Below are positions 54,336 through 64,000 of a DNA stretch of 64,000 bases, one piece after another. Each line of letters begins with the position of its first letter. Positions within the stretch are counted from its first letter, which is position 1. A program made the position numbers and the translations under genes. This DNA comes from Candidatus Latescibacterota bacterium (GTDB lineage Bacteria; Latescibacterota; UBA2968; UBA8231): positions 1,104,631 through 1,168,630 of the forward strand of contig CBDCNM010000001.1 in NCBI GenBank assembly GCA_965219385.1. The letters are read 5' to 3'. The notes under the pieces are model-generated. The model was not told the DNA's origin. It saw only the letters and a list, made by a program, of their open reading frames with translations, and ran no database searches.

Positions 54336-54608
54336 ATCTACCAGGTAGTTATAAACAGAATTGATCAGGATAAAAAAATCATAATGAGTATACACTCCAG
54401 GCACAAAAGCCGCAAGACACCATCCTCATCCACCCAGGCGGACGGCCTGGCGGACGACGACATAACATGGTCAACTTGCTACCAGGTCATAAGTATACAT
54501 GTATTTAGTTGCGCTGGGAGGACGAGTGGCCTAGTGCGAACCGTAATTTAGTTCATCGGGTCCATTCACCTCAGCTACCCGGCCATCCTCTAGCAGGAGC
54601 AGACGACC

Positions 54609-56270
54609 ATGCACCGCGTTAAGAGTTGCATTGCCCTGGGATTGATCTACCTGGGCCTGGGCCTGTCGGCCGGGGGGGCGCAGACCGACCCTGCCCCGGA
54701 GGAAGTTGTGAGGGTGCCGGATCCCAGGCTGCGGGCGGTGCTGGAGCGTCGGCTCGGCCCACCGATCACTGCTGTCGCATTGGCGCGGTTGACCGTCCTG
54801 GAGGCACCGAATGCGGGCATTGTCGCGTTGACCGGGTTGGAATTTGCCACCGGACTGACCCGGCTGGATCTGGGGGTGGACTCCACGGGGTACAATCACA
54901 ACGCCATCTCCGACCTGGCGCCCCTGGCCGGCCTGACCGGCCTGACCTCTCTGCATCTGGAGCGCAACGACATCTCCGACCTGGCGCCCCTGGCCGACCT
55001 GACCGGCCTGACCTCTCTGCATCTGGAGCGCAACGACATCTCAGAGGTGGCGCCCCTGGCCGGCCTGACCGGCCTGACCTCTCTGGATCTGGAGCGCAAC
55101 GACATCTCCGACCTGACGCCCCTGGCCGGCCTGACCGGCCTGACCTCTCTGCATCTTTCGGACAACGACATCTCGGATGTGGCGCCGCTGTCGGGCTTGA
55201 CCGGCCTGACCTCTCTGCATCTGGAGCGCAACGACATCTCAGAGGTGGCGCCCCTGGCCGGCCTGACCGGCCTGACCCATCTATATCTTAGAGGCAACGC
55301 GCTCACGGAGGTGTCGGGGCTGGCCGGCCTGACCAACCTGACTCGGCTGAGTCTTAGCTACAACGACATCTCGGATGTGTCGGGGCTGGCTGGCCTGACC
55401 GGCCTGACCGTGCTGTATCTTAGGAACAACGACCTCTCGGATGTGGCGCCCCTGGCCGGCCTGACCGGCCTGACCTCTCTGCATCTTTCGGACAACGACA
55501 TCTCGGATGTGGCGCCGCTGTCGGGCTTGACCGGCCTGACCCGGCTGGATCTTTCGGACAACGACATCTCGGATGTGGCGCCGCTGTCGGATCTGACCGG
55601 CCTGACCCGGCTGGATCTTTCGGACAACAACATCTCGGATGTGGCGCCGCTGTCGGATCTGACCGGCCTGATCTCTCTGCATCTGGAGCACAACTGGGTG
55701 GTGGATGTGTCGCCGCTGTCGGGCTTGACCGGCCTGCGCAATCTGTATATCGACCGGGATGTGGATGTGTCGCCGCTGTCGGGGCTGACCGGCCTGACCG
55801 TGCATTTTATGCTCCCGCCTATCCGGTATCCCCAGCTGGGTTCGCTCAGTGATCTGGTCGAGGCGTACGAGGACGCGCTCGCGGCGGGGCGCGTGACGAG
55901 CGCTGTCGTTCCCGTTTCCGGGGGCTGCCCCAGGACTATTCTCCCTGGGGCTTTCCTTACATGGGACCCGTCCAAGCCGGCCCCGTCGATTTATGTGAAC
56001 ATTGGAATCTACACGATAGAGAGCGTTGACGTGGTTGTCCGCTTTCTTGCAGACCACGGCATCTCCATCCCCCCGCGCCGCATCTGGAAGGACGAGGACG
56101 CCTACCCTCCGGGGCTGATTGGGGCTTGTGTGCCCGTGCCGCTGCTGGTGCCCCTGTCCGAACTGCCCGGCGTCAGCAGCAGAATCAGGAAGGTGTATCC
56201 ACCCGTGCTCCTCGCTCCCGCTGTAATTGAAGAGGAATCCTGGGGTGCGATAAAGAATCGTTTCAAGTAG
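54609..56270 (+). CDS. Secreted internalin-like LRR protein with propeptide-like C-domain and SWGAIK terminal motif
   Basis: Signal peptide, VPDPRLRA LRR N-cap, 13-14 22-aa LRRs, C-domain homologous to the pre-protease domain of the next gene. Confidence 0.9.
   Translation: MHRVKSCIALGLIYLGLGLSAGGAQTDPAPEEVVRVPDPRLRAVLERRLGPPITAVALARLTVLEAPNAGIVALTGLEFATGLTRLDLGVDSTGYNHNAISDLAPLAGLTGLTSLHLERNDISDLAPLADLTGLTSLHLERNDISEVAPLAGLTGLTSLDLERNDISDLTPLAGLTGLTSLHLSDNDISDVAPLSGLTGLTSLHLERNDISEVAPLAGLTGLTHLYLRGNALTEVSGLAGLTNLTRLSLSYNDISDVSGLAGLTGLTVLYLRNNDLSDVAPLAGLTGLTSLHLSDNDISDVAPLSGLTGLTRLDLSDNDISDVAPLSDLTGLTRLDLSDNNISDVAPLSDLTGLISLHLEHNWVVDVSPLSGLTGLRNLYIDRDVDVSPLSGLTGLTVHFMLPPIRYPQLGSLSDLVEAYEDALAAGRVTSAVVPVSGGCPRTILPGAFLTWDPSKPAPSIYVNIGIYTIESVDVVVRFLADHGISIPPRRIWKDEDAYPPGLIGACVPVPLLVPLSELPGVSSRIRKVYPPVLLAPAVIEEESWGAIKNRFK
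54900..55800 (+). repeat. 66-bp tandem LRR-coding repeat array (about 13-14 units)
   Basis: Recurring CTGACCGGCCTGACC...AACGACATCTC units; several are nearly identical at the DNA level. Confidence 0.92.
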
Positions 56271-56359
56271 GGCGGCCGTAGCTATGCCATATTCTACCAT
56301 TGTTCAGCGGGTCCATTCCCCTCGGATCGCCCGCCAACTTCTATCAGGAGCAGACGACC

Positions 56360-59300
56360 ATGCCCAGTGTTAGGACTTTCGTTGCCTTGGGATTGATCTA
56401 CCTGGGCCTGTCGGCCGGGTGGGCGCAGACCGACCCTTCCCCAGCGGTCGTGACCGTGCCGGACGCCCGGCTACGGGCGGTGCTGGAGGATAGCCTCGGT
56501 CTGGCGGAGGGGGCGTCCATCACCGCGGTGGCGTTGGCGCGGTTGACCGTCCTGGAGGCGCCGGATGCGAGCATCGTCGCGTTGACCGGGTTGGAATTTG
56601 CCACCGGGCTGACCCGGCTGGATCTGGGGCCGGGCCCCGGGAGATGGCCCTGGGAAAACAGCAACGCCATCTCCGACCTGGCGCCGCTGTCGGGCTTGAC
56701 CGGCCTGACGTGGCTGAGTCTGTCGGGCAACGCGGTGGTGGATGTGTCGTCGCTGTCGGGCTTGACCGGCCTGACCTATCTGAATCTTGAGGACAACCCC
56801 ATCTCGGAGGTGTCGTCGCTGTCGGGCTTGACCAACCTGACCGATTTGTATCTGGCGCTCACCCCGCTGTCGGAGGCGTCGTCGCTGTCGGGTCTGACCG
56901 GCCTGACCGTGCATGGTCTGCCCTGGCCGTACCGGTATCCCAAGCTGGGTTCGCTCAGTGATCTGGTCGAGGCCTACGAGGACGCACGCCCGACAGGGCG
57001 CTCGGGAGCCAGAAGCCCGGCGCCGCCGGCCCCCTCCGTCCGGGTGAAAATTCAAACCGACACGCGGTCGCGCGTTGACGCGGTCGCCCGCTTTCTTGAG
57101 GACCAGGGCATCGCCGCGGACACCTGGCAGGGCGATAGCGCAAGCGTCATTCAGGGGCTGCTTTGGGCTCGGGTGCCCGTGTCGCTGCTGGTGCGCCTGT
57201 CCGAACAAGCCGGTGTCCTCAGCGTCGAGAAGGTGTATCCGTCCATCCCTCTGCAGAACAACGGCTCCTCCGAGGGGGCGTCATCGAGAACGCCCGACAA
57301 GGCGCACGGGGCAGCGGCGTGGCGCAATGCCGGCATCGAGGGCGCAGGTATCCGCGTGGGGGTGATCGACGGAGGCTTCCAAGGCTTCAGTGACAGGTTG
57401 ATTTCCATGGTGGACACGGTCCGGGCGCGATGCTACGCCGGTGAGGGTGCGACTCCAACAACCATCGTTTTAGAAGACTGCGAAACTAGTGATTGTGCGA
57501 CCGCGCTCCAGAATTCCAGCTGCGAAAATGACACTACCCACGGCACCGATGTCACGGAGGCCCTGCTCGGTATCGCGCCAAAGGTGTCTCTTTACATAGC
57601 GAATCCAAAAAGAAATACAATGAGAGACGCCGTTACCTGGATGATCGGTGAGGGGGTCCAGGTCATCAATCATTCAAGAGGCATGCTATGGGACGGGCCG
57701 GGCGACGGGACATCGCCGGCTCCGAAAAGCCCGCTGAAATCGGTGGACGCCGCCGTGGAGGCCGGAATTATCTGGGTCAATGGGGCGGGAAATGATGCGA
57801 AGCGCACGTGGTTTTCAAGATCATTAGTCTTCAATGCGGATGACTACCTGATGTTTGATGGTACCAATGCCAAGGGCAACGAGGTCTTCTTGCCATCAGG
57901 TCAGGAATACACATTTCAGTTGCGCTGGCAGGACACGTGGCCTGGTGCGAACCGTAATTTAGACCTCTATCTTTATGGTAAGGACCACGAGAGGGTCATG
58001 TCTATGGTGGCGCAATCAGTAGAGCCCCAGAATGGAGGGATGATGCATACTCCATTGGAGGTCTTAGAATACACCCCCACAACGCCCTTCTTTAGTTATT
58101 GCTTGAGCGTAAAAAAACTCGATCCGGAGGACGACAATCCGGAGTGGGTTCAGTTGCAAGTGTTCTCGACCATGGTCGACTCCCTGAAGCATAACACGGG
58201 GGCCGGCAGCATTAGCAATCCGGCGGAGAGCAACAACCCGGGCCTGCTGGCCGTCGGTGCCGCCGACTTGTCCGTTCCCCCCATGATCGAAAGCTACAGC
58301 TCTCGCGGCCCCACCCCCGAAGATAACCGCACCAAGCCGGACCTGGTCGGCGCCGTTGACCAATTGTCCGGAACGAGCTATGCCGCGCCGCGCGTGGCCG
58401 GGCTGGCCGCGCTTGTTATCCAGCACATGGACGGCGACCCCAGCTACGACTCCCCGGACAAGATTGCCACGTACCTGAAAAACAACACCCTTGATCGAGA
58501 CGGCGACGGCGTCGCCGACGATCCGGACAACATCTGGGGGCACGGCTTTGCCCAACTTCCCGAACTGCTGGCCGCACCGGGCGGGCTGACCGCCGAGGCG
58601 GTGAGTGGAGAAGGGGAAGGGATCCGTGTCGGTTGGAACGCCGTGGCGTCGACGAGCCCAGAGGTGACGGGGTACCGGCTGGAGTTCCAGCAGGCCCAGG
58701 TCGGGACGGAGGATTCGGAGGGTTGGTCGGACTATGCCTTGCTGGCCACGATCACCAACGGGAGCACCACCTACACCCAGACCGTCGACGCGATGGGCCT
58801 CCCCTTGTATACGGGCTACCGCTACCGCTACCGGGTGCGGGCGCGCCCCGCAGGGGAGTGGTCGGCGGATTTTCCCGAAAACGGGGTGATTCCCCTACCG
58901 GGCTTGCTGAGCGGCGTGCGGGTGGAAGTGGTCAATGGCCAAGCAAAGACGATTTGGGACTGCCCGTTGGCCAAGTGTGACCCGTCGCCCGGCGAGCCGC
59001 TCCCGCCGCTCGACGTGGAGTATCAGAGGAAGACCGGGGACCTGGATTGGGGGCTGTGGCAGCCCGTGTCCACCACTGGGTTGAGCACGGACGCACCGGC
59101 CAGAGGCGCAAGGGGGTCGGCCGGGGCCTCGGGTGGGTCGCTTCCCACGTCGTATACGGTGCCGGTGGCGGAGCTGGACAGCACGGTGACGTACCAGTTC
59201 CGGGTGCGGCTGGTCAACGCAGATGGGCAGGCGAGGGCGGCGTCGAAGGCGGTGGCGGTGGTGCCCTTGGAGGTGCAAGGGGCGGATGGGCAGGCGAGGT

Positions 59301-62300
59301 TGAGTTGGACCGATCCGGGCTACGCCCTCATCACGCAGTGGCAGTATCGCACCAGGGCGGGGGCCGCCGCGTGGGAGGAGTGGGAGAATATAACCCCTGG
59401 CGGGGGAGCCACGACGTCGTATACGTATACGGTGCCGAATCTGACCAACGGGGTGGGCTACCAGTTTCAGATGCAGGCGATGGAGGGGACGGCGCCAAGG
59501 GTCGTCTCCTTCATCGTGGCGGCCACGCCGGGGCGGGCGCCGGATCCGGTTCGGCACCTGCACGCGGCGGCGGGGAATGGGCAGGTGACGCTTTCCTGGA
59601 GGGCGCCGGGGTCGGATGGGGGCCTGGCGCTGACGGGGTATGAGTATCGTCAGAGCGCCAACTCAGGGCGCACCTGGCCGCCGGACTGGACGGCGGTGGC
59701 GCCGCCGCTGGCGACGAGCCTGACGCGGACGGGCTTGGAGAGTTGCACGTTCTACACCTTCGAGGTGCGGGCGCGCAACCCGGCCGGTCCGGGCGACGCG
59801 CGGCGCGTTTCGGTGCCGCGGCCGTATTGGTCCGGTTCGCTGGCGGCGGATACGACGTGGAGCGGCCGGGTCTGTGTGGACGGGGACGTGACCATCCCGG
59901 CGGGGGTGACGTTGACTCTGGCGGCGGAAACGGAGATGGCGTTCCATCCGGGGGGGGATGCCACGGGCGGGGGGGACGACCCCGCCCGCCCGGAGCTGAT
60001 CGTGGCGGGGACGCTGAGCGCCGGCACCGGGGTCACCTTCCGGTCCGTCGATATCAACTTCCCGTCCACCTCCGATTGGTCCGGCATCCGGGTGGACAGC
60101 GGGGGTAGTGCCGATCTGAGCGGGGCCACGGTCCGGGACGGGGCTCGCTGTGTGCAGGCCCATACGTCGGGTACGGTGACGCTGACGAACACCACCTTGA
60201 GCCCCTGCGGCCAGTCGGTGTCGTTGAGTTCCCGGAGGTCGCAGGTGGGGGTGGGGCTGACGGCTACGTTGGAAGGCGAGACGGAGGCGGTGAGCGCTGC
60301 GCGCTGGCAGTGGCAGGGGCGCAATGACCGCGATAGTGCGCCGGCCTGGGCGGATCTGGCCGGCGCATCGCAGTTGGTTAGCTACACGCCGGTGGCCGCG
60401 GACATCGGTCATCGGTTGCGGGCGACGGTGCGATACGGGCCCGGTTCGAGCAGCTATTCCAACTACGCCCAGAGTGCGGCGACCCGGGTGGTGCAGGGGC
60501 CGCCGCCGACGGGTTTTGCGGTGTGGCCGGACCATGAGGCGGTGTTGCTGCTCTGGGACGATTCCGCCGAGGCGCCGATTACCCATTGGCACTACGGGGT
60601 GAAAGAGGGCACGGAGTACGCCTGGACGGAGGTGGCCAATAGTGAGGTCCCTGCCACCGAGTATGGCGGTCGTATGATCCGGTATCACCGGATAGGCGGC
60701 CTGAGCAATACCGTAGAATATCGCTTCAAGCTTCGGGCGCAAATGGATGCGGGGCTGGGGGCGTCTACGGAGGCCGTGCGGGCGACCCCGGTCCAGCCGC
60801 AGGTCGCCTATGGGGCCTCGAGCTACGAGGCGCGGGAAGGGGGCGCGGCGGTAGAGGTGGGGGTGGCCTTGTCGGCCCAGACGACCCGGGCGGTGCGCCT
60901 TCCGCTGACGGTGACGGCGGATTCGGGCACGGAGGCGGGCGATTACACGGTGGAGGGGCTGAGTGCGGGGGCGGCGGGCGCTTACACGGTGTCGTTTACC
61001 CTTGGCCAGTCCACCCAGACCTTTACGCTCAGGGCCAACGCAGACGAGGACGAGGACGATGAGACGGTGAGCCTGGGGTTGGGGACGCTGCCTTCGGGGG
61101 TGCGTGCGGGTACGCCGGCAAGGGCGACGGTGACCCTGCGGGACATTGACGTCAACGAGCCGCCGGTAATCACGGGCGGGCCCACGGCGGTGTCGTTTGC
61201 CGAGAACGGCACGGACTCGGTGGCCACCTATCGGGCGACCGATCCGGAGGGGGCCGCGATCCGGTGGGCGTGGGCGGGCCCGGATGCGAGTGCGTTTACA
61301 ATGCGGGGAGACAGCCTCTACTTTTTTGCGCGGGCGCCCGACTACGAGAATCCGACCGACGCTGACCAGGACACGGTCTACCAGGTGACGGTGACGGCCA
61401 GCGACGGGTCGTTGTCGTCGGACCCGGTCGAGGTGTCGGTGACGGTGACCAATGTTAATGAGCCGCCGCAGATTGAGGGGCCCACGGCGGTGTCGTTTGC
61501 CGAGAACGGCACGGACTCGGTGGCCACCTATAGGGCGACCGATCCGGAGGGGGCCGCGATCCGGTGGGCGTGGGCGGGCCCGGATGCGAGTGCGTTTACA
61601 ATGCGGGGAGACAGCCTCTACTTTGCGCCGGCGCCGGACTACGAGAATCCGACCGACGCTGACCAGGACACGGTCTACCAGGTGAGGGTGACGGCCAGCG
61701 ACGGGTCGTTGTCGTCGGACCCGGTCGAGGTCCGGGTGACGGTGACCAATGTTAATGAGCCGCCGCAGATTGAGGGGCCCACCGTGGTGTCGTTTGCCGA
61801 GAACGGCACGGACTCGGTGGCTACCTATCGGGCGACCGATCCGGAGGGGGCCGCGATCCGGTGGGCGTGGGCGGGCCCGGATGCGAGTGCGTTTACGATG
61901 CGGGGGGACAGCCTCTACTTTGCGCCGGTGCCGGACTACGAGAATCCGACCGACGCCGACCAGGACACGGTCTACCAGGTGAGGGTAACGGCCAGCGACG
62001 GGGCGCTGTCGTCGGACCCGGTCGAGGTGTCGGTGCGGGTGACCGACGTGGAGGAGCCCGGCACGGTGACGCTGTCGTCGAGCCAGCCGCAGGTGGGCAC
62101 GGCGGTGACGGCGACCTTGAGCGACCCGGACGGCGGGGTGCGCGGTACCCTGTGGCAGTGGCAGGCGAGCAACACGTCGCCGGCCTCTTGGTTGAATCGG
62201 GGCTCGCCCGGTGCGTCCAGCAGCTACACGCCGCCGGACGCGGACGTGGGCTACGTGCTTCGGGCCCGGGCCCGCTACACCGACGTCCATGGTTCGCAGC

Positions 62301-64000
62301 AGGCCGAGAGCGCCCCCCCGACCGACCCGGTGCGGGCTCGGCCGGGGGGGACCGTCTCCTACAGCGCCGCGTCGTACGTGGCGACCGAAGACGGCGACAC
62401 CGCCACGGTGCGGGTGAACCTGTCGCCGGCGCCGACCGAGGCGGTGGCCGTGAAGGTGACGGTGCGACCGGGCCCGAACACCGAGGCCGGCGACTTCGCC
62501 GCTGTCGACCTGGCGTCGGACAGCACCGTGTCGTTCACGGCCACCGCCGCCTCGGACTCGTTCAAGATCGTGGCCCGCTCCGATGCGGACAGCGAGGACG
62601 AGACGGTGCTGCTGGGGTTCAAGGAGCTGCCGGCCGGCATCGGCCCCGGCGCGCCGGCCACGGCCACGGTGAACCTCTTGGACGCGACCCTGAAGGTGGT
62701 CGGGCCCGCCCGGGTCTCCGTCGAGGAGGAGGGCAGCAGGTTGGTGGCCCCGTACCGGGCTACCGACCCGTGGGACGGTCCGGTGGCGCCGGTCCGCTGG
62801 TCGCTGACCGGCGCCGATTCTACCTGGTTTCAGATGCATGGCAACACCCTCGAATTCGTCAGCGAGCCCGACTACGAGCAGCCCCTGGACGACGGCACCG
62901 ACAACGTCTACGACGTGAATCTGCAGGCCGTCTACGGGGGGGCGTACCACTCGGCCCCGTTCCCCGTGGCCGTGACCGTGACCAACAAGGACGAGCCGGG
63001 CACGGTGAGCGTGTCGCCGTCGAGCGCGCAGGTGGGCCGGGAGTTGCAGGCGACGCTGACCGACCCGGACGGCAGCGTGTCTGACACGCTGTGGCAGTGG
63101 CAGTACCGGGCCGAGGCCACATCGGCGTGGGATGACCTTACGAGCCCGGAAGCGCGGTTTTCCGCGTATAGGCCGGTGGCGGCCGATGCCGGGCAGTACC
63201 TGCGGGCGACGGTGGGCTACACCGACGGGCACGGGCCGGGCAAGAGCGCACAGAGCGGGGCCACCGATGCGGTGCAGGAGGCGTCAACCGTGACGATCGT
63301 GGGGCCGGACAGTGTTTGGTTTGCCGAGAACGGCACGGACTCAGTGGCCACCTATCGGGCCACGGATGGGCAAGGGGCCCGGCTGGCGTGGCGGTTGGGG
63401 GGGCCGGATGTGGGGGCTTTCACGGTGGAAGGGGATACCCTTTCCTTTACGAGGGCGCCCGATTTTGAGGGGCCGACCGATGCGGGGGGCGACAACGAGT
63501 ACCACGTCACGGTGACGGCTGGCGAGGGGGCGGGGTCTAGGTCGGAGGCGGTGGTGGTGACGGTGACCAATGTGGATGAGCCGCCGCCGCCCGTGGGGGT
63601 GAGCGATACCACCTTTGCCGAGAACGGCACGGGGGGGGTGGCCACCTACACGGCCACCGACCCGGAGGGGGCCGCGATTGACTGGTCGTTGGGGGGGGCG
63701 GATGCCGACACCTTGCAGATCGATGCGCAGGGCCGGCTGTCGTTCCGGGCGGCGCCCAACTATGAGGCGCCGGCCGATGCCAACCGGGACCGTGTCTACC
63801 AGGTGGCGGTGGTGGCCAGTGACGGGGCGTTGTCAGCGTCGCTGGCGGTGTCGGTGCGGGTGACCAATGTGGAGGAGCCCGGCACGGTGACGCTGTCGTC
63901 GACTCAGCCGCGGGTGGGCACGGAGCTGACGGCGGAGCTGCACGACCCGGATGGGATCGAGCCGGGGGCGCGCTGGCAATGGCAGCGTCGGGCCGATGCG
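56360..64000 (+). CDS. Giant secreted LRR - S8 subtilase - FN3 - Calx-beta - cadherin protein (3' end beyond window)
   Basis: ATG 56360 with AGGAG SD; the frame appears open to 64000 (no ORF-track entry in this frame); catalytic D 57368, H 57539, S 58376 (VIDGG, HGT, GTSYAAP); FN3 and cadherin repeats. Confidence 0.9.
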   Translation, partial: MPSVRTFVALGLIYLGLSAGWAQTDPSPAVVTVPDARLRAVLEDSLGLAEGASITAVALARLTVLEAPDASIVALTGLEFATGLTRLDLGPGPGRWPWENSNAISDLAPLSGLTGLTWLSLSGNAVVDVSSLSGLTGLTYLNLEDNPISEVSSLSGLTNLTDLYLALTPLSEASSLSGLTGLTVHGLPWPYRYPKLGSLSDLVEAYEDARPTGRSGARSPAPPAPSVRVKIQTDTRSRVDAVARFLEDQGIAADTWQGDSASVIQGLLWARVPVSLLVRLSEQAGVLSVEKVYPSIPLQNNGSSEGASSRTPDKAHGAAAWRNAGIEGAGIRVGVIDGGFQGFSDRLISMVDTVRARCYAGEGATPTTIVLEDCETSDCATALQNSSCENDTTHGTDVTEALLGIAPKVSLYIANPKRNTMRDAVTWMIGEGVQVINHSRGMLWDGPGDGTSPAPKSPLKSVDAAVEAGIIWVNGAGNDAKRTWFSRSLVFNADDYLMFDGTNAKGNEVFLPSGQEYTFQLRWQDTWPGANRNLDLYLYGKDHERVMSMVAQSVEPQNGGMMHTPLEVLEYTPTTPFFSYCLSVKKLDPEDDNPEWVQLQVFSTMVDSLKHNTGAGSISNPAESNNPGLLAVGAADLSVPPMIESYSSRGPTPEDNRTKPDLVGAVDQLSGTSYAAPRVAGLAALVIQHMDGDPSYDSPDKIATYLKNNTLDRDGDGVADDPDNIWGHGFAQLPELLAAPGGLTAEAVSGEGEGIRVGWNAVASTSPEVTGYRLEFQQAQVGTEDSEGWSDYALLATITNGSTTYTQTVDAMGLPLYTGYRYRYRVRARPAGEWSADFPENGVIPLPGLLSGVRVEVVNGQAKTIWDCPLAKCDPSPGEPLPPLDVEYQRKTGDLDWGLWQPVSTTGLSTDAPARGARGSAGASGGSLPTSYTVPVAELDSTVTYQFRVRLVNADGQARAASKAVAVVPLEVQGADGQARLSWTDPGYALITQWQYRTRAGAAAWEEWENITPGGGATTSYTYTVPNLTNGVGYQFQMQAMEGTAPRVVSFIVAATPGRAPDPVRHLHAAAGNGQVTLSWRAPGSDGGLALTGYEYRQSANSGRTWPPDWTAVAPPLATSLTRTGLESCTFYTFEVRARNPAGPGDARRVSVPRPYWSGSLAADTTWSGRVCVDGDVTIPAGVTLTLAAETEMAFHPGGDATGGGDDPARPELIVAGTLSAGTGVTFRSVDINFPSTSDWSGIRVDSGGSADLSGATVRDGARCVQAHTSGTVTLTNTTLSPCGQSVSLSSRRSQVGVGLTATLEGETEAVSAARWQWQGRNDRDSAPAWADLAGASQLVSYTPVAADIGHRLRATVRYGPGSSSYSNYAQSAATRVVQGPPPTGFAVWPDHEAVLLLWDDSAEAPITHWHYGVKEGTEYAWTEVANSEVPATEYGGRMIRYHRIGGLSNTVEYRFKLRAQMDAGLGASTEAVRATPVQPQVAYGASSYEAREGGAAVEVGVALSAQTTRAVRLPLTVTADSGTEAGDYTVEGLSAGAAGAYTVSFTLGQSTQTFTLRANADEDEDDETVSLGLGTLPSGVRAGTPARATVTLRDIDVNEPPVITGGPTAVSFAENGTDSVATYRATDPEGAAIRWAWAGPDASAFTMRGDSLYFFARAPDYENPTDADQDTVYQVTVTASDGSLSSDPVEVSVTVTNVNEPPQIEGPTAVSFAENGTDSVATYRATDPEGAAIRWAWAGPDASAFTMRGDSLYFAPAPDYENPTDADQDTVYQVRVTASDGSLSSDPVEVRVTVTNVNEPPQIEGPTVVSFAENGTDSVATYRATDPEGAAIRWAWAGPDASAFTMRGDSLYFAPVPDYENPTDADQDTVYQVRVTASDGALSSDPVEVSVRVTDVEEPGTVTLSSSQPQVGTAVTATLSDPDGGVRGTLWQWQASNTSPASWLNRGSPGASSSYTPPDADVGYVLRARARYTDVHGSQQAESAPPTDPVRARPGGTVSYSAASYVATEDGDTATVRVNLSPAPTEAVAVKVTVRPGPNTEAGDFAAVDLASDSTVSFTATAASDSFKIVARSDADSEDETVLLGFKELPAGIGPGAPATATVNLLDATLKVVGPARVSVEEEGSRLVAPYRATDPWDGPVAPVRWSLTGADSTWFQMHGNTLEFVSEPDYEQPLDDGTDNVYDVNLQAVYGGAYHSAPFPVAVTVTNKDEPGTVSVSPSSAQVGRELQATLTDPDGSVSDTLWQWQYRAEATSAWDDLTSPEARFSAYRPVAADAGQYLRATVGYTDGHGPGKSAQSGATDAVQEASTVTIVGPDSVWFAENGTDSVATYRATDGQGARLAWRLGGPDVGAFTVEGDTLSFTRAPDFEGPTDAGGDNEYHVTVTAGEGAGSRSEAVVVTVTNVDEPPPPVGVSDTTFAENGTGGVATYTATDPEGAAIDWSLGGADADTLQIDAQGRLSFRAAPNYEAPADANRDRVYQVAVVASDGALSASLAVSVRVTNVEEPGTVTLSSTQPRVGTELTAELHDPDGIEPGARWQWQRRADA
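61150..62050 (+). repeat. Three near-identical tandem cadherin-coding units (about 297-300 bp)
   Basis: GTGTCGTTTGCCGAGAACGGCACGGACTCGGTGG recurs at about 61190, 61490 and 61787; more diverged copies at about 62700, 63300 and 63600. Confidence 0.92.

Follow-up and report, generated by a model that had tools for sequence, protein, structure and literature searches.

Two adjacent genes on the forward strand lie at the end of the window, by which we mean the whole stretch of 64,000 nucleotides that was analysed. Gene 1 (54609..56270, + strand, 553 aa in the ORF listing) encodes, in order, a signal peptide, an LRR N-cap, about 13 internalin-like 22-residue LRRs (counted with a regular expression; LRR_4 6.7e-58 and LRR_8 1.9e-54 in Pfam), a post-LRR domain common to both genes, which we term X, and a C-terminal SWG tag. 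Gene 2 (56360..64000, + strand) encodes a giant predicted protease and has its 3′ end beyond the window. The N-terminus of gene 1 (54609..54680, + strand; MHRVKSCIALGLIYLGLGLSAGGA, with Q following), picked by eye from the sequence, is a predicted Sec signal peptide. Upstream lies a leader (54549..54608, + strand) with a Shine-Dalgarno-like CAGGAG, defined from alignments. A reading of the locus from sequence only had proposed that the two genes share about 60 nt of 5′ leader, and this is borne out by alignment: the stretches of about 60 nt before each ATG are of high identity, their final 18 nt, with CAGGAGCAGACGACCATG within, are identical, and the leader recurs throughout an alignment of 8 family genes. 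A search of 54350-56500 found neither a sigma-70-type promoter nor an intrinsic terminator, and the intergenic region with the gene 2 leader (56271..56359, + strand, from alignments) folds as RNA no better than shuffled sequences (z 0.49).

The coding parts are shared as well, as had also been claimed. The N-termini, comprising the signal peptide, N-cap and first LRRs, are 64% identical over 186 aa (E 4e-54), and X with its flanking LRRs is 47% identical (E 8e-47), with only 2 of 53 DNA positions differing between 55824-55876 and 56933-56985. The X domain of gene 1 (55824..56201, + strand, aa 406-531, alignment A3) is of a tag-type subtype, marked by an insert of 20 aa and by a Cys that precedes VPVP, and that of gene 2 (56933..57241, + strand, aa 192-294) is of an S8-linked subtype that lacks the insert. 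The statement that gene 1 ends right after X needs correction: 22 residues follow its ...KVYP, and the last 17 (PAVIEEESWGAIKNRFK; 56217..56267, + strand) form the conserved C-terminal tag.

Immediately behind X in gene 2 comes an S8 catalytic domain (57278..58570, + strand, delimited by Pfam PF00082, motifs and alignment A5), which proved to be intact, as first read. It scores 64.1 bits against PF00082 (cut-off 21.8), and the motifs GVIDGGF (D337, 57368), HGTDV (H394, 57539), GAGNDAK (oxyanion N478, 57791) and SGTSYAAP (S673, 58376) stand in family order, with the catalytic D and H invariant in the 28 sequences of A5. The modelled domain matches subtilisins with VIA Z of 28-30; about 243 residues of subtilisin BPN′ and its relatives align at an rmsd of about 2.4, indicating a subtilisin fold. 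Profile, triad with oxyanion Asn, and modelled fold thus agree in predicting a peptidase of family S8. Inserted in it is a jellyroll-like beta-sandwich (57803..58270, + strand, boundaries approximate; strands at model residues 301-454). The rest of the gene in the window (58600..64000, + strand) consists of fn3, cadherin-like and other beta-sandwich repeats by Pfam (fn3 4.5e-21; Cadherin 1.8e-7, its 31.9 bits barely over the cut-off of 28.8). The open frame runs on to G000:C1:1176187, giving 5092 aa from stop to stop, and past a C-run with a likely frameshift come fn3 (18 stretches in Pfam) and a FlgD_ig-type C-terminal domain (2e-11, last 211 aa), the CTD-like part of which matches the PorU model at 2.3e-8. 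The genome has a T9SS (PorU 656.9 bits, cut-off 420; SprA 633 bits, cut-off 200), and gene 2 is therefore, by its sequence, a predicted T9SS cargo whose sorting domain is reached only across the C-run frameshift.

We modelled X of gene 1 with a pLDDT of 89, as an N-terminal helix and a beta-alpha-beta-beta-alpha-beta core. Among 48161 chains its best VIA match was the N-propeptide of Tk-SP (PDB chain 3afg_B; Z 8.1, 94 aligned), and the stand-alone inhibitor POIA1 (1v5i_B) aligned over 71 of 76 residues (Z 7.5, rmsd 2.3). Subtilase prodomains and POIA1 account for at least 11 of the 50 VIA entries listed (Z 6.1-8.1); these top 50 include two PCSK9 prodomain chains, a PCSK9 chain that contains the prodomain, and the prodomains of 8gko, 8c4x, 9ues, 3bgo_P, 4yn3_B, 4zoq, 3t41 and 3whi. 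For X alone, ACT and other ferredoxin-like domains tie with the prodomains (Z 7.3-7.7), so the modelled fold appears common to prodomains yet not unique to the I9 family, and Foldseek gave no match for X alone at E<=1e-3. An Ig domain and an LRR cap, the two alternative folds to be considered, are ruled out by the predicted topology together with the prodomain matches.

Sequence profiles recognise much less. None of 53 alignment members of the X family matched Pfam PF05922 (I9) or PF18425 (CspB_prodomain) at E<=1, no Pfam match to either was found for P0003 or P0004 (PF05922 at E<=10), and an X profile found nothing among PDB sequences. The language model offers a lead, in that CspB_prodomain clusters make up 22 of the 30 named ESM-Atlas matches to the ESM features of gene 1 X (score 0.91).

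The position of X gives a further view of its identity. A profile built from the 8 genomic X copies retrieved 170 representatives at E<=1e-3. An S8 Asp motif follows X within 90 aa in 39 of 173 distinct X domains, and in 13 of the 56 best matches Pfam confirms an S8 domain directly after X; some relatives instead have 4-13 tandem X copies without a recognised protease. In the model of X and S8 of gene 2 (pLDDT 83, pTM 0.78), mature subtilisins align over about 243 residues, from model residue 125 on, whereas unprocessed pro-subtilisin E (3whi_B) aligns over 312 residues (model 43-554, chain 6-365) and pro-Tk-subtilisin (2zwo_C) over 317, propeptide included. X of gene 2 is thus predicted to sit on S8 in the canonical propeptide pose. 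The linker expected in the active-site cleft (residues 112-125) has a pLDDT below 50, and AlphaFold's placing of X on S8 may reflect mere resemblance to solved pro-subtilisins. Gene 1 has X without a catalytic domain, so there the domain does not stand as a propeptide in cis. Taken together, sequence context and models identify X as a probable subtilase prodomain of the I9/Csp structural type, in line with the propeptide-type domain proposed at the outset.

The closest structural relatives of the module are the Csp subtilases of Clostridia (CspB, CspA and CspC), which have the same order as gene 2, a prodomain followed by a subtilase with a jellyroll insertion. The best 10 Foldseek matches of the X+S8 model were all Csp chains (4i0w_B at 4e-18), CspC (6mw4) aligned with a TM of 0.61 over 595 columns, and by VIA the CspB chain 4i0w_B aligned over 389 residues (Z 29.3) compared to about 243 for subtilisins that lack the insert. 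The S8 domain of gene 2, jellyroll insertion included, is accordingly Csp-like in its model. Identity to Csp proteins is only 14-17%, however, and these spore proteins are intracellular, about 550 aa long, and carry no LRR, giant adhesin-like tail or T9SS domain. According to the available text of the CspB report, its prodomain is retained once autoprocessing has taken place and blocks the active site (PMC3567191); X might likewise be retained in gene 2.

The C-terminal tag of gene 1 belongs to a wider set. It follows the pattern xAVExxSWGxIKxxF, and no NCBIfam or Pfam model covers it. Among 17894 stop-to-stop ORFs of at least 120 aa, the motif [STNR]WG.[IVLM]K was counted 58 times, and 47 of these occurrences are at most 12 aa from the C-terminus. 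Gene 1, which encodes a signal-peptide protein, ends in ...EESWGAIKNRFK, which places [ST]WGx[IVL]K no further than about 12 residues from its C-terminus. About 47 secreted proteins of the genome carry the tag, on unrelated domains, and about 50 carry T9SS-type tails; the short proteins and gene 2 have separate C-terminal sorting tags, SWG in the former and a T9SS-type domain in the latter. Both gene products are probably exported. Closely related N-terminal modules with two different tails make a natural contrast, and a sorting role for SWG is directly testable.

The pair in the window is one instance among several, since the genome has 8 X copies at 3 loci, with the short genes upstream of a long gene on the same strand. 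Looking for LRR-propeptide genes next to LRR-S8 genes in related genomes, as the sequence-only reading had suggested, brought the total, this genome included, to 5 loci at which short genes directly precede an LRR-X-S8 gene, spread over 3 genomes and 2 genera. In the other genus, one genome (G165) has about 7 short genes directly before a gene for a 1097-aa LRR-X-S8 protein, and a second (G161) has a short gene before one of 1111 aa. In the tree of X domains, 33 of 36 tag-type domains fall on one side of a branch with support 84/92, and their sisters are LRR-X-S8 domains from both genera. Gene 1 keeps all 9 of the nearly invariant family positions of X, as tag-type domains do, and the tag-type features (the insert, WDPSKPAPS, and the Cys before VPVP in 27 of 36) are kept across distant genomes. 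The tag-type domains form an old clade with an insert and cysteine of its own, and with the short architecture present in other genomes gene 1 is no lone recent truncation. Its family is one of old, multi-copy, recombining paralogs with a signal peptide, variable LRRs, X and an SWG tag.

A mechanism can be proposed in which the Csp-like S8 module of gene 2, with its jellyroll insert, would be folded and capped in cis by X, unusual here for the LRR head N-terminal to it, and gene 2 might process itself. The short family would be exported by Sec and sorted by a C-terminal signal unlike that of the protease. The reading that we favour, tentatively, is that X of the short proteins docks, as a prodomain would, on S8 of the adjacent giant protease, and would therefore make the short protein a trans inhibitor or an exchangeable LRR-bearing cap. 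The conserved synteny and the retention of the family and tag-type positions agree with it. An obligate pairing of inhibitor and protease is, in contrast, argued against by several genomes: a single-contig, 91% complete genome (G018) has 2 tandem short LRR-X-tag genes but no X-S8 gene, its nearest S8 relative being 35% identical and 1.7 Mb away; two others (G053 and G057) show the reverse, X-S8 without short genes; and one paralog, B1, has LRRs and the tag without X. The number of short genes beside a protease gene, between one and seven, would also be odd for the stoichiometry of a dedicated inhibitor. A fuller version of the docking reading has the short proteins as diversifying, exchangeable LRR-prodomain caps that rival the cis prodomain on one Csp-like protease chassis, would switch the activity or target specificity of the giant surface protease, and would be brought to the surface by the SWG tag as the chassis is by the T9SS domain, along separate routes. 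Taken whole, we regard this as quite unlikely.

Similar arrangements are known elsewhere. Trans-acting prodomain-like regulators of subtilases are known from fungi and plants, and stand-alone inhibitors of the I9 type include yeast PBI2 and plant SPI-1 besides POIA1. To our knowledge, all characterised stand-alone prodomain-like proteins are subtilase inhibitors. POIA1, classed as I9-type in MEROPS, has the same beta-alpha-beta-beta-alpha-beta fold as X, though X has no detectable sequence membership of I9 and differs from these inhibitors in its additional N-terminal helix and, in the tag type, in the 20-aa insert with its Cys. The sequence-only reading did not recognise the arrangement as one already described; prodomain-like inhibitors that stand alone and are encoded next to subtilase genes have, however, been published. 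According to the available text of the report on SUB1-ProM of Plasmodium (PMC6993865), this inhibitor gene is syntenic beside subtilase genes, its selective inhibition was measured, and similarity to the cognate propeptide is predicted for its core. Gene 1 resembles it as a separate prodomain-like gene adjoining subtilase genes, but is known here from sequence and models, and SUB1-ProM is a eukaryotic single gene without LRR array or SWG tag, compared to a multi-copy, recombining family. If the docking reading is true, what is new here is a bacterial prodomain-like regulator fused to a variable LRR array, which would aim or regulate a surface protease and is kept in multiple copies beside a giant LRR-prodomain-S8 protein in an uncultured Latescibacterota lineage.

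A serious possibility, if a doubtful one, is that the short proteins are independent LRR binders, secreted or on the surface, which arose when the 5′ module of the protease gene was duplicated, and in which X persists only as a stable structural or stalk element linking the LRR array to the SWG tag, without interplay with the protease. The architecture of B1 works without X and G018 keeps its short genes where no X-S8 gene was found, and the occurrence of the SWG tag on so many unrelated domains makes it an independent sorting module. Moreover, each of the 16 database homologues of 304-968 aa is an LRR protein for which no Pfam S8 domain is listed. Between copies in this genome, X has a dN/dS of 0.66-1.81 for the short ones, no different from the 1.07-1.42 of broken long copies, and constraint on X of the short copies may be relaxed. 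Against such independence stand the full set of nearly invariant positions in tag-type X, the insert, WDPSKPAPS and cysteine kept in distant genomes, the position of short genes directly ahead of LRR-X-S8 genes at 5 loci, and the inhibitory role of the characterised stand-alone relatives, SUB1-ProM among them (PMC6993865, available text). Were the short proteins unrelated to the protease, they would be an ordinary, fast-evolving LRR paralog family.

The variability of the LRRs raises the question of whether the short genes serve mainly as a reservoir of LRR cassettes, from which gene conversion would vary LRR heads, including that of the giant protease. Conserved blocks would flank the LRRs for this purpose: 5′ of them the leader, signal peptide and N-cap, and 3′ of them the RYPxLGSLSDLVEAYEDA block in X. 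Gene 1 is a mosaic in 60-nt windows, its closest paralog being first B1 (92-96%), then B4 and the long copy B5 (93-96%), then B1 again (95-100%); the 53-nt block at the start of X is near-identical in genes 1 and 2; the LRR array differs in length between paralogs of 426 to 558 aa; and on contigs from other samples LRR repeats are joined in registers that differ, a weak observation given the short anchors. Mosaicism would nevertheless be seen in any young tandem paralog family, and the short genes come with leaders, start codons and signal peptides of their own, plus a dedicated C-terminal tag, and therefore look expressed rather than silent, so that we hold a mainly cassette role to be unlikely. 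A further reading, in which gene 1 and its relatives would be partial copies of the protease gene, functionless in themselves and in decay, is very unlikely: dN/dS is near 1, two of three long copies are broken (B5 has lost the Ser region through an internal deletion, C2 has an in-frame stop) and the short copies B2 and B4 have frame breaks that may be homopolymer errors, but the frame of gene 1 is intact over 553 aa, an X that is 98% identical occurs in another assembly (P0155), the tag-type clade with its conserved signature is found in two genera and many metagenome proteins, and gain of a C-terminal sorting tag is unlike decay.

The LRRs themselves resemble those of Listeria internalins, which also have 22-residue repeats and an N-cap. 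The internalin profiles NF033188 and NF033189 gave 321 bits (cut-off 1050) and 253 bits (cut-off 1600), placing gene 1 outside class 1 internalins, and the matches suggest LRR likeness only. Gene 1 has no LPXTG or GW anchor. Internalins have an Ig-like inter-repeat domain after the LRRs, whereas those of gene 1 are followed by the predicted alpha/beta prodomain fold.

Alignments bear out the sequence-only reading of two adjacent genes with a common leader, signal peptide, LRR N-cap, LRRs and post-LRR domain. Gene 1 (54609-56270, + strand, 553 aa) and gene 2 (from 56360, + strand, open at the window end) lie head to tail and have a leader of about 60 nt in common. The signal peptides, N-caps and first repeats are 64% identical over 186 aa (E 4e-54), and the domain following the LRRs, here termed X, is present in both. 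The near-identity of the DNA at 55824-55876 and 56933-56985 also holds (2 of 53 positions differ), as does the claim of an intact S8 domain in gene 2, which matches Pfam PF00082 with 64.1 bits (cut-off 21.8) and has D337, H394, N478 and S673 in place, each within its usual motif. The statement that the gene 1 protein stops right after X was wrong: X is followed by a short motif, the SWG tag (56217-56267; xAVExx[ST]WGx[IVL]KxxF, strictly C-terminal), and the C-terminus reads PAVIEEESWGAIKNRFK. A scan of 54350-56500 for sigma-70-type promoters and for terminators found none, and the leader RNA folds no better than shuffled sequences.

In the whole genome (G000, with contigs C1 and C2) the frame of gene 2 covers 5092 aa from stop to stop, and Pfam places fn3 and cadherin-like repeats downstream of the S8 domain. 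The frame breaks at a C-run (G000:C1:1176090-1176200) inside a proline-rich linker that is itself built of C-runs, and the frame after the break encodes fn3 and a FlgD_ig-type C-terminal domain (Pfam, 2e-11). This break, just ahead of the T9SS signal, is probably either a homopolymer error or a real frameshift. Of the T9SS itself, the genome encodes PorU, the sortase (656.9 bits; cut-off 420), as well as SprA, the translocon (633 bits), and the C-terminal-domain part of the PorU model has about 49 further matches in the genome, one of which is the end of gene 2.

Neither Pfam nor NCBIfam has a match to X, and a profile search of PDB sequences gave a chance-level glyoxalase match alone (E 1.7). 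With a profile built from the eight copies of this genome and searched against 1.84 billion representatives, 170 proteins pass E<=1e-3, and 30 of them also pass E<=1e-10. Among the 56 best matches, Pfam places Peptidase_S8 directly behind X in 13 and LRRs ahead of X in many short proteins; a few proteins have 4-13 tandem copies. When 173 distinct X domains were sorted by what lies behind them, 39 had the S8 Asp motif within 90 residues and 36 had the C-terminal tag, the other 98 being unclassed, mostly because the contig ends at that point. An alignment of the eight genomic copies, used as a profile against metagenome contigs, found no match, and against genome contigs gave five weak matches in MAGs of Acidobacteriota and Acidimicrobiales; these are partial, covering 28-29 residues, and we do not count them as relatives. 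Five metagenome proteins (P0008, P0017, P0020, P0026 and P0028) have 4-13 tandem matches to the X core without a recognised Pfam domain, and look like arrays of prodomain-like modules. Four members of the X-S8 family (P0035, P0037, P0098 and P0143) have the LRR array C-terminal of the protease rather than ahead of the prodomain, so that LRRs have either become attached to this protease family on more than one occasion or been moved.

A model of the gene 1 X domain with its tail, built from a 53-sequence alignment (pLDDT 89), has an N-terminal helix and a beta-alpha-beta-beta-alpha-beta core. Foldseek with X alone returned nothing at E<=1e-3; among its top rows above that threshold are the pro-form of Tk-SP, prodomains of PCSK9 and that of CspB. 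When X is structurally aligned to 48161 representative chains, the Tk-SP N-propeptide comes first (3afg_B; Z 8.1, 94 residues aligned). The 50 matches listed also include POIA1 (Z 7.5, rmsd 2.3, 71 of 76 aligned), two prodomain chains of PCSK9 and one PCSK9 chain that includes the prodomain, and the prodomains of an Aspergillus protease, PAM protease, Tk-subtilisin, subtilisin BPN', cucumisin, a lanthipeptide protease, EpiP and pro-subtilisin E. Interleaved with these at equal Z are domains of the ACT and other ferredoxin-like types, so the fold alone is not specific. Among ESM-Atlas features of X, CspB_prodomain clusters account for 22 of 30 named hits (score 0.91). The possibility that X is an Ig-like domain (of the internalin inter-repeat kind) or an LRR C-cap, against which the sequence-only reading had asked to be judged, was rejected given the alpha/beta model and the N-terminal helix, which is also present in relatives without LRRs; the prodomain reading survives.

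The position of X agrees with its fold. A model of gene 2 residues 183-745, covering X and S8 (pLDDT 83, pTM 0.78), aligns over 312 residues with unprocessed pro-subtilisin E (3whi_B; model 43-554, chain 6-365) and over 317 residues with pro-Tk-subtilisin (2zwo_C), whereas mature subtilisins align over about 243 residues and from model residue 125 onward. X is thus modelled at the propeptide site, in a pose to be read with the caveat that AlphaFold has seen pro-subtilisin structures and that confidence in the X-S8 linker is low. The whole model matches best to the clostridial Csp proteases (4i0w_B, 4e-18), and the alignment of 389 residues with CspB explains the beta-sandwich insert in the gene 2 S8 domain as a Csp-like jellyroll. 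The prodomain of CspB remains bound and occludes the active site (PMC3567191). By modelled structure and by position, X is a subtilase prodomain whose sequence family lies outside Pfam.

We searched 167 other genomes of the phylum for X and found it at E<=1e-6 in four (G018, G053, G161 and G165); G057 gave a match of 4.4e-6 in a smaller search. G165 and G161, which belong to another genus of the same family, repeat the short-then-long arrangement. In G165 about seven short LRR-X genes, most of them ending in the tag, share the strand of the 1097-aa LRR-X-S8 gene that they immediately precede, and in G161 a short gene is followed by a 1111-aa LRR-X-S8 gene. G018, a single contig, encodes a tandem pair of short LRR-X-tag genes and lacks an X-S8 gene; the nearest S8 relative there is 35% identical and far away. 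In G053 and G057 the X-S8 genes are 51% identical to gene 2, and short genes are absent. A database search with the X region of gene 1 found 16 proteins of 304-968 aa, all with LRR Pfam domains and none with an S8 Pfam domain.

In a tree of 75 labelled X domains, 33 of the 36 tag-type domains (those followed by the SWG tag) lie on one side of a branch with support 84/92. Copies from both genera are intermixed in this group, and LRR-X-S8 domains, again from both genera, form its sister groups. The two G018 copies are placed elsewhere, beside another LRR-X-S8 protein (100/99). Three label changes are needed, compared to about 25 with shuffled labels. Tag-type domains have a signature of their own, namely an insert of 20 aa that contains WDPSKPAPS and, ahead of VPVP, a Cys found in 27 of 36 tag-type and 1 of 39 S8-linked domains. 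Given the clade, its signature and its recurrence in other genomes, the short genes are an old paralogous lineage, and gene 1 is not the lone recent truncation that the sequence-only reading had allowed for.

The window pair is one of three LRR-X loci in this genome, and gene 2 is the only intact giant among them. At locus B, four short genes lie upstream of a broken 781-aa long LRR-X-S8 copy, B5 (G000:C2:4330409-4332751), which has lost the middle of S8 including the Ser region, mid-S8 being joined to a part whose counterpart in gene 2 comes about 800 aa later. At locus C, one short gene lies upstream of a long copy (G000:C2:573129-576932) in which an in-frame TAG stands at the position of a Gln codon of gene 2 (W*W vs WQW). 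One short gene of locus B, B1 (G000:C2:4337900-4339351, 484 aa), starts with the leader and signal peptide of the family, continues with a long LRR array and ends in the SWG tag, X being absent altogether. In successive 60-nt windows of 54569-54938 the closest paralog of gene 1 changes from B1 to B4 (another short gene of locus B) together with B5, and back to B1. Such mosaic similarity of the 5' modules points to gene conversion between short and long members, and on the sequences the paralogs appear to recombine. Of 10 sequencing runs listed, none was of RNA; contigs from four runs were short fragments with many repeat-register joints on short anchors.

Pairwise dN/dS of X (NG86) is 0.18-0.41 when long copies are compared with each other, 0.66-1.81 for pairs of short copies and 0.85-1.65 for mixed pairs. 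We rejected these values as a sign of positive selection, since the S8 and downstream parts of gene 2 give equal values against the two broken long copies (1.07-1.42); the short copies evolve fast, in a way that fits positive selection and relaxed constraint alike.

We tentatively favour, at somewhat below even confidence, a joint reading in which the X of gene 2 acts in cis and that of the short proteins putatively docks on S8 in trans. In gene 2, X would chaperone and cap a Csp-like protease module from within the same chain. The short proteins would be exported by Sec and sorted via the SWG tag, and their prodomain-like X may dock on the S8 domain of gene 2, making them inhibitors or exchangeable LRR-bearing caps. 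In favour of this joint reading are the fold and modelled pose of X, short/long adjacency conserved at five loci in three genomes of two genera, the retention in gene 1 of all nine nearly invariant family positions, and the precedents of SUB1-ProM (PMC6993865) and POIA1. Against it stand the exceptions G018, G053 and G057, the paralog without X, the many short genes per protease gene, the proteins with tandem X copies and the dN/dS near 1. The main rival, only slightly less likely, takes the short proteins for LRR binding proteins that act on their own, with X serving just as a structural module. It is unlikely that the short genes are a reservoir of LRR cassettes, and quite improbable that they are plainly decaying.

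The principle of a stand-alone prodomain-like protein encoded beside a subtilase gene is already described, SUB1-ProM being such a protein (PMC6993865). A literature search for bacterial LRR-subtilase-propeptide systems gave plant and unrelated papers only. What is new here is a prodomain-like domain fused to a variable LRR array, an LRR ahead of the prodomain within the protease itself, a multi-copy recombining family of LRR-X proteins, and closely related N-terminal modules that end in one or the other of two different C-terminal sorting signals.

The SWG tag differs from gene 2's T9SS domain. Scanning all stop-to-stop frames of at least 120 aa (17894 frames, 4.69 million residues), we found 58 occurrences of [STNR]WG.[IVLM]K, 47 of them within 12 residues of the C-terminus, where fewer than one would be expected by chance as estimated from the 11 internal occurrences. 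Nearly all tag carriers have a signal-peptide-like N-terminus. Seven of 16 scanned carriers have Pfam matches, to the mutually unrelated HmuY, FGE-sulfatase, PD40 propeller, Cache and CBM9, and nine have none; LRR domains likewise occur among tag-bearing proteins. Given its placement and its unrelated carriers, the tag acts like a general signal for sorting or anchoring at the C-terminus. Neighbouring genes in G165 also carry it, as do the short genes in G018. The strings SWGxIK, TWGxIK, WGxIK, TWGRIK and SWGRIK were found in no paper, and literature on T9SS and Latescibacteria held nothing relevant to the tag, which is thus undescribed within the searchable literature. Thirteen ORFs, most of them about 320 aa long, form a family with the common ending ...RGLLVGPGGE.PD.AVES.TWGRIKA...; the single member that was scanned has no Pfam match, and the family lies at G000:C2:4105850-4116349 and at scattered loci, with seven members in one cluster.
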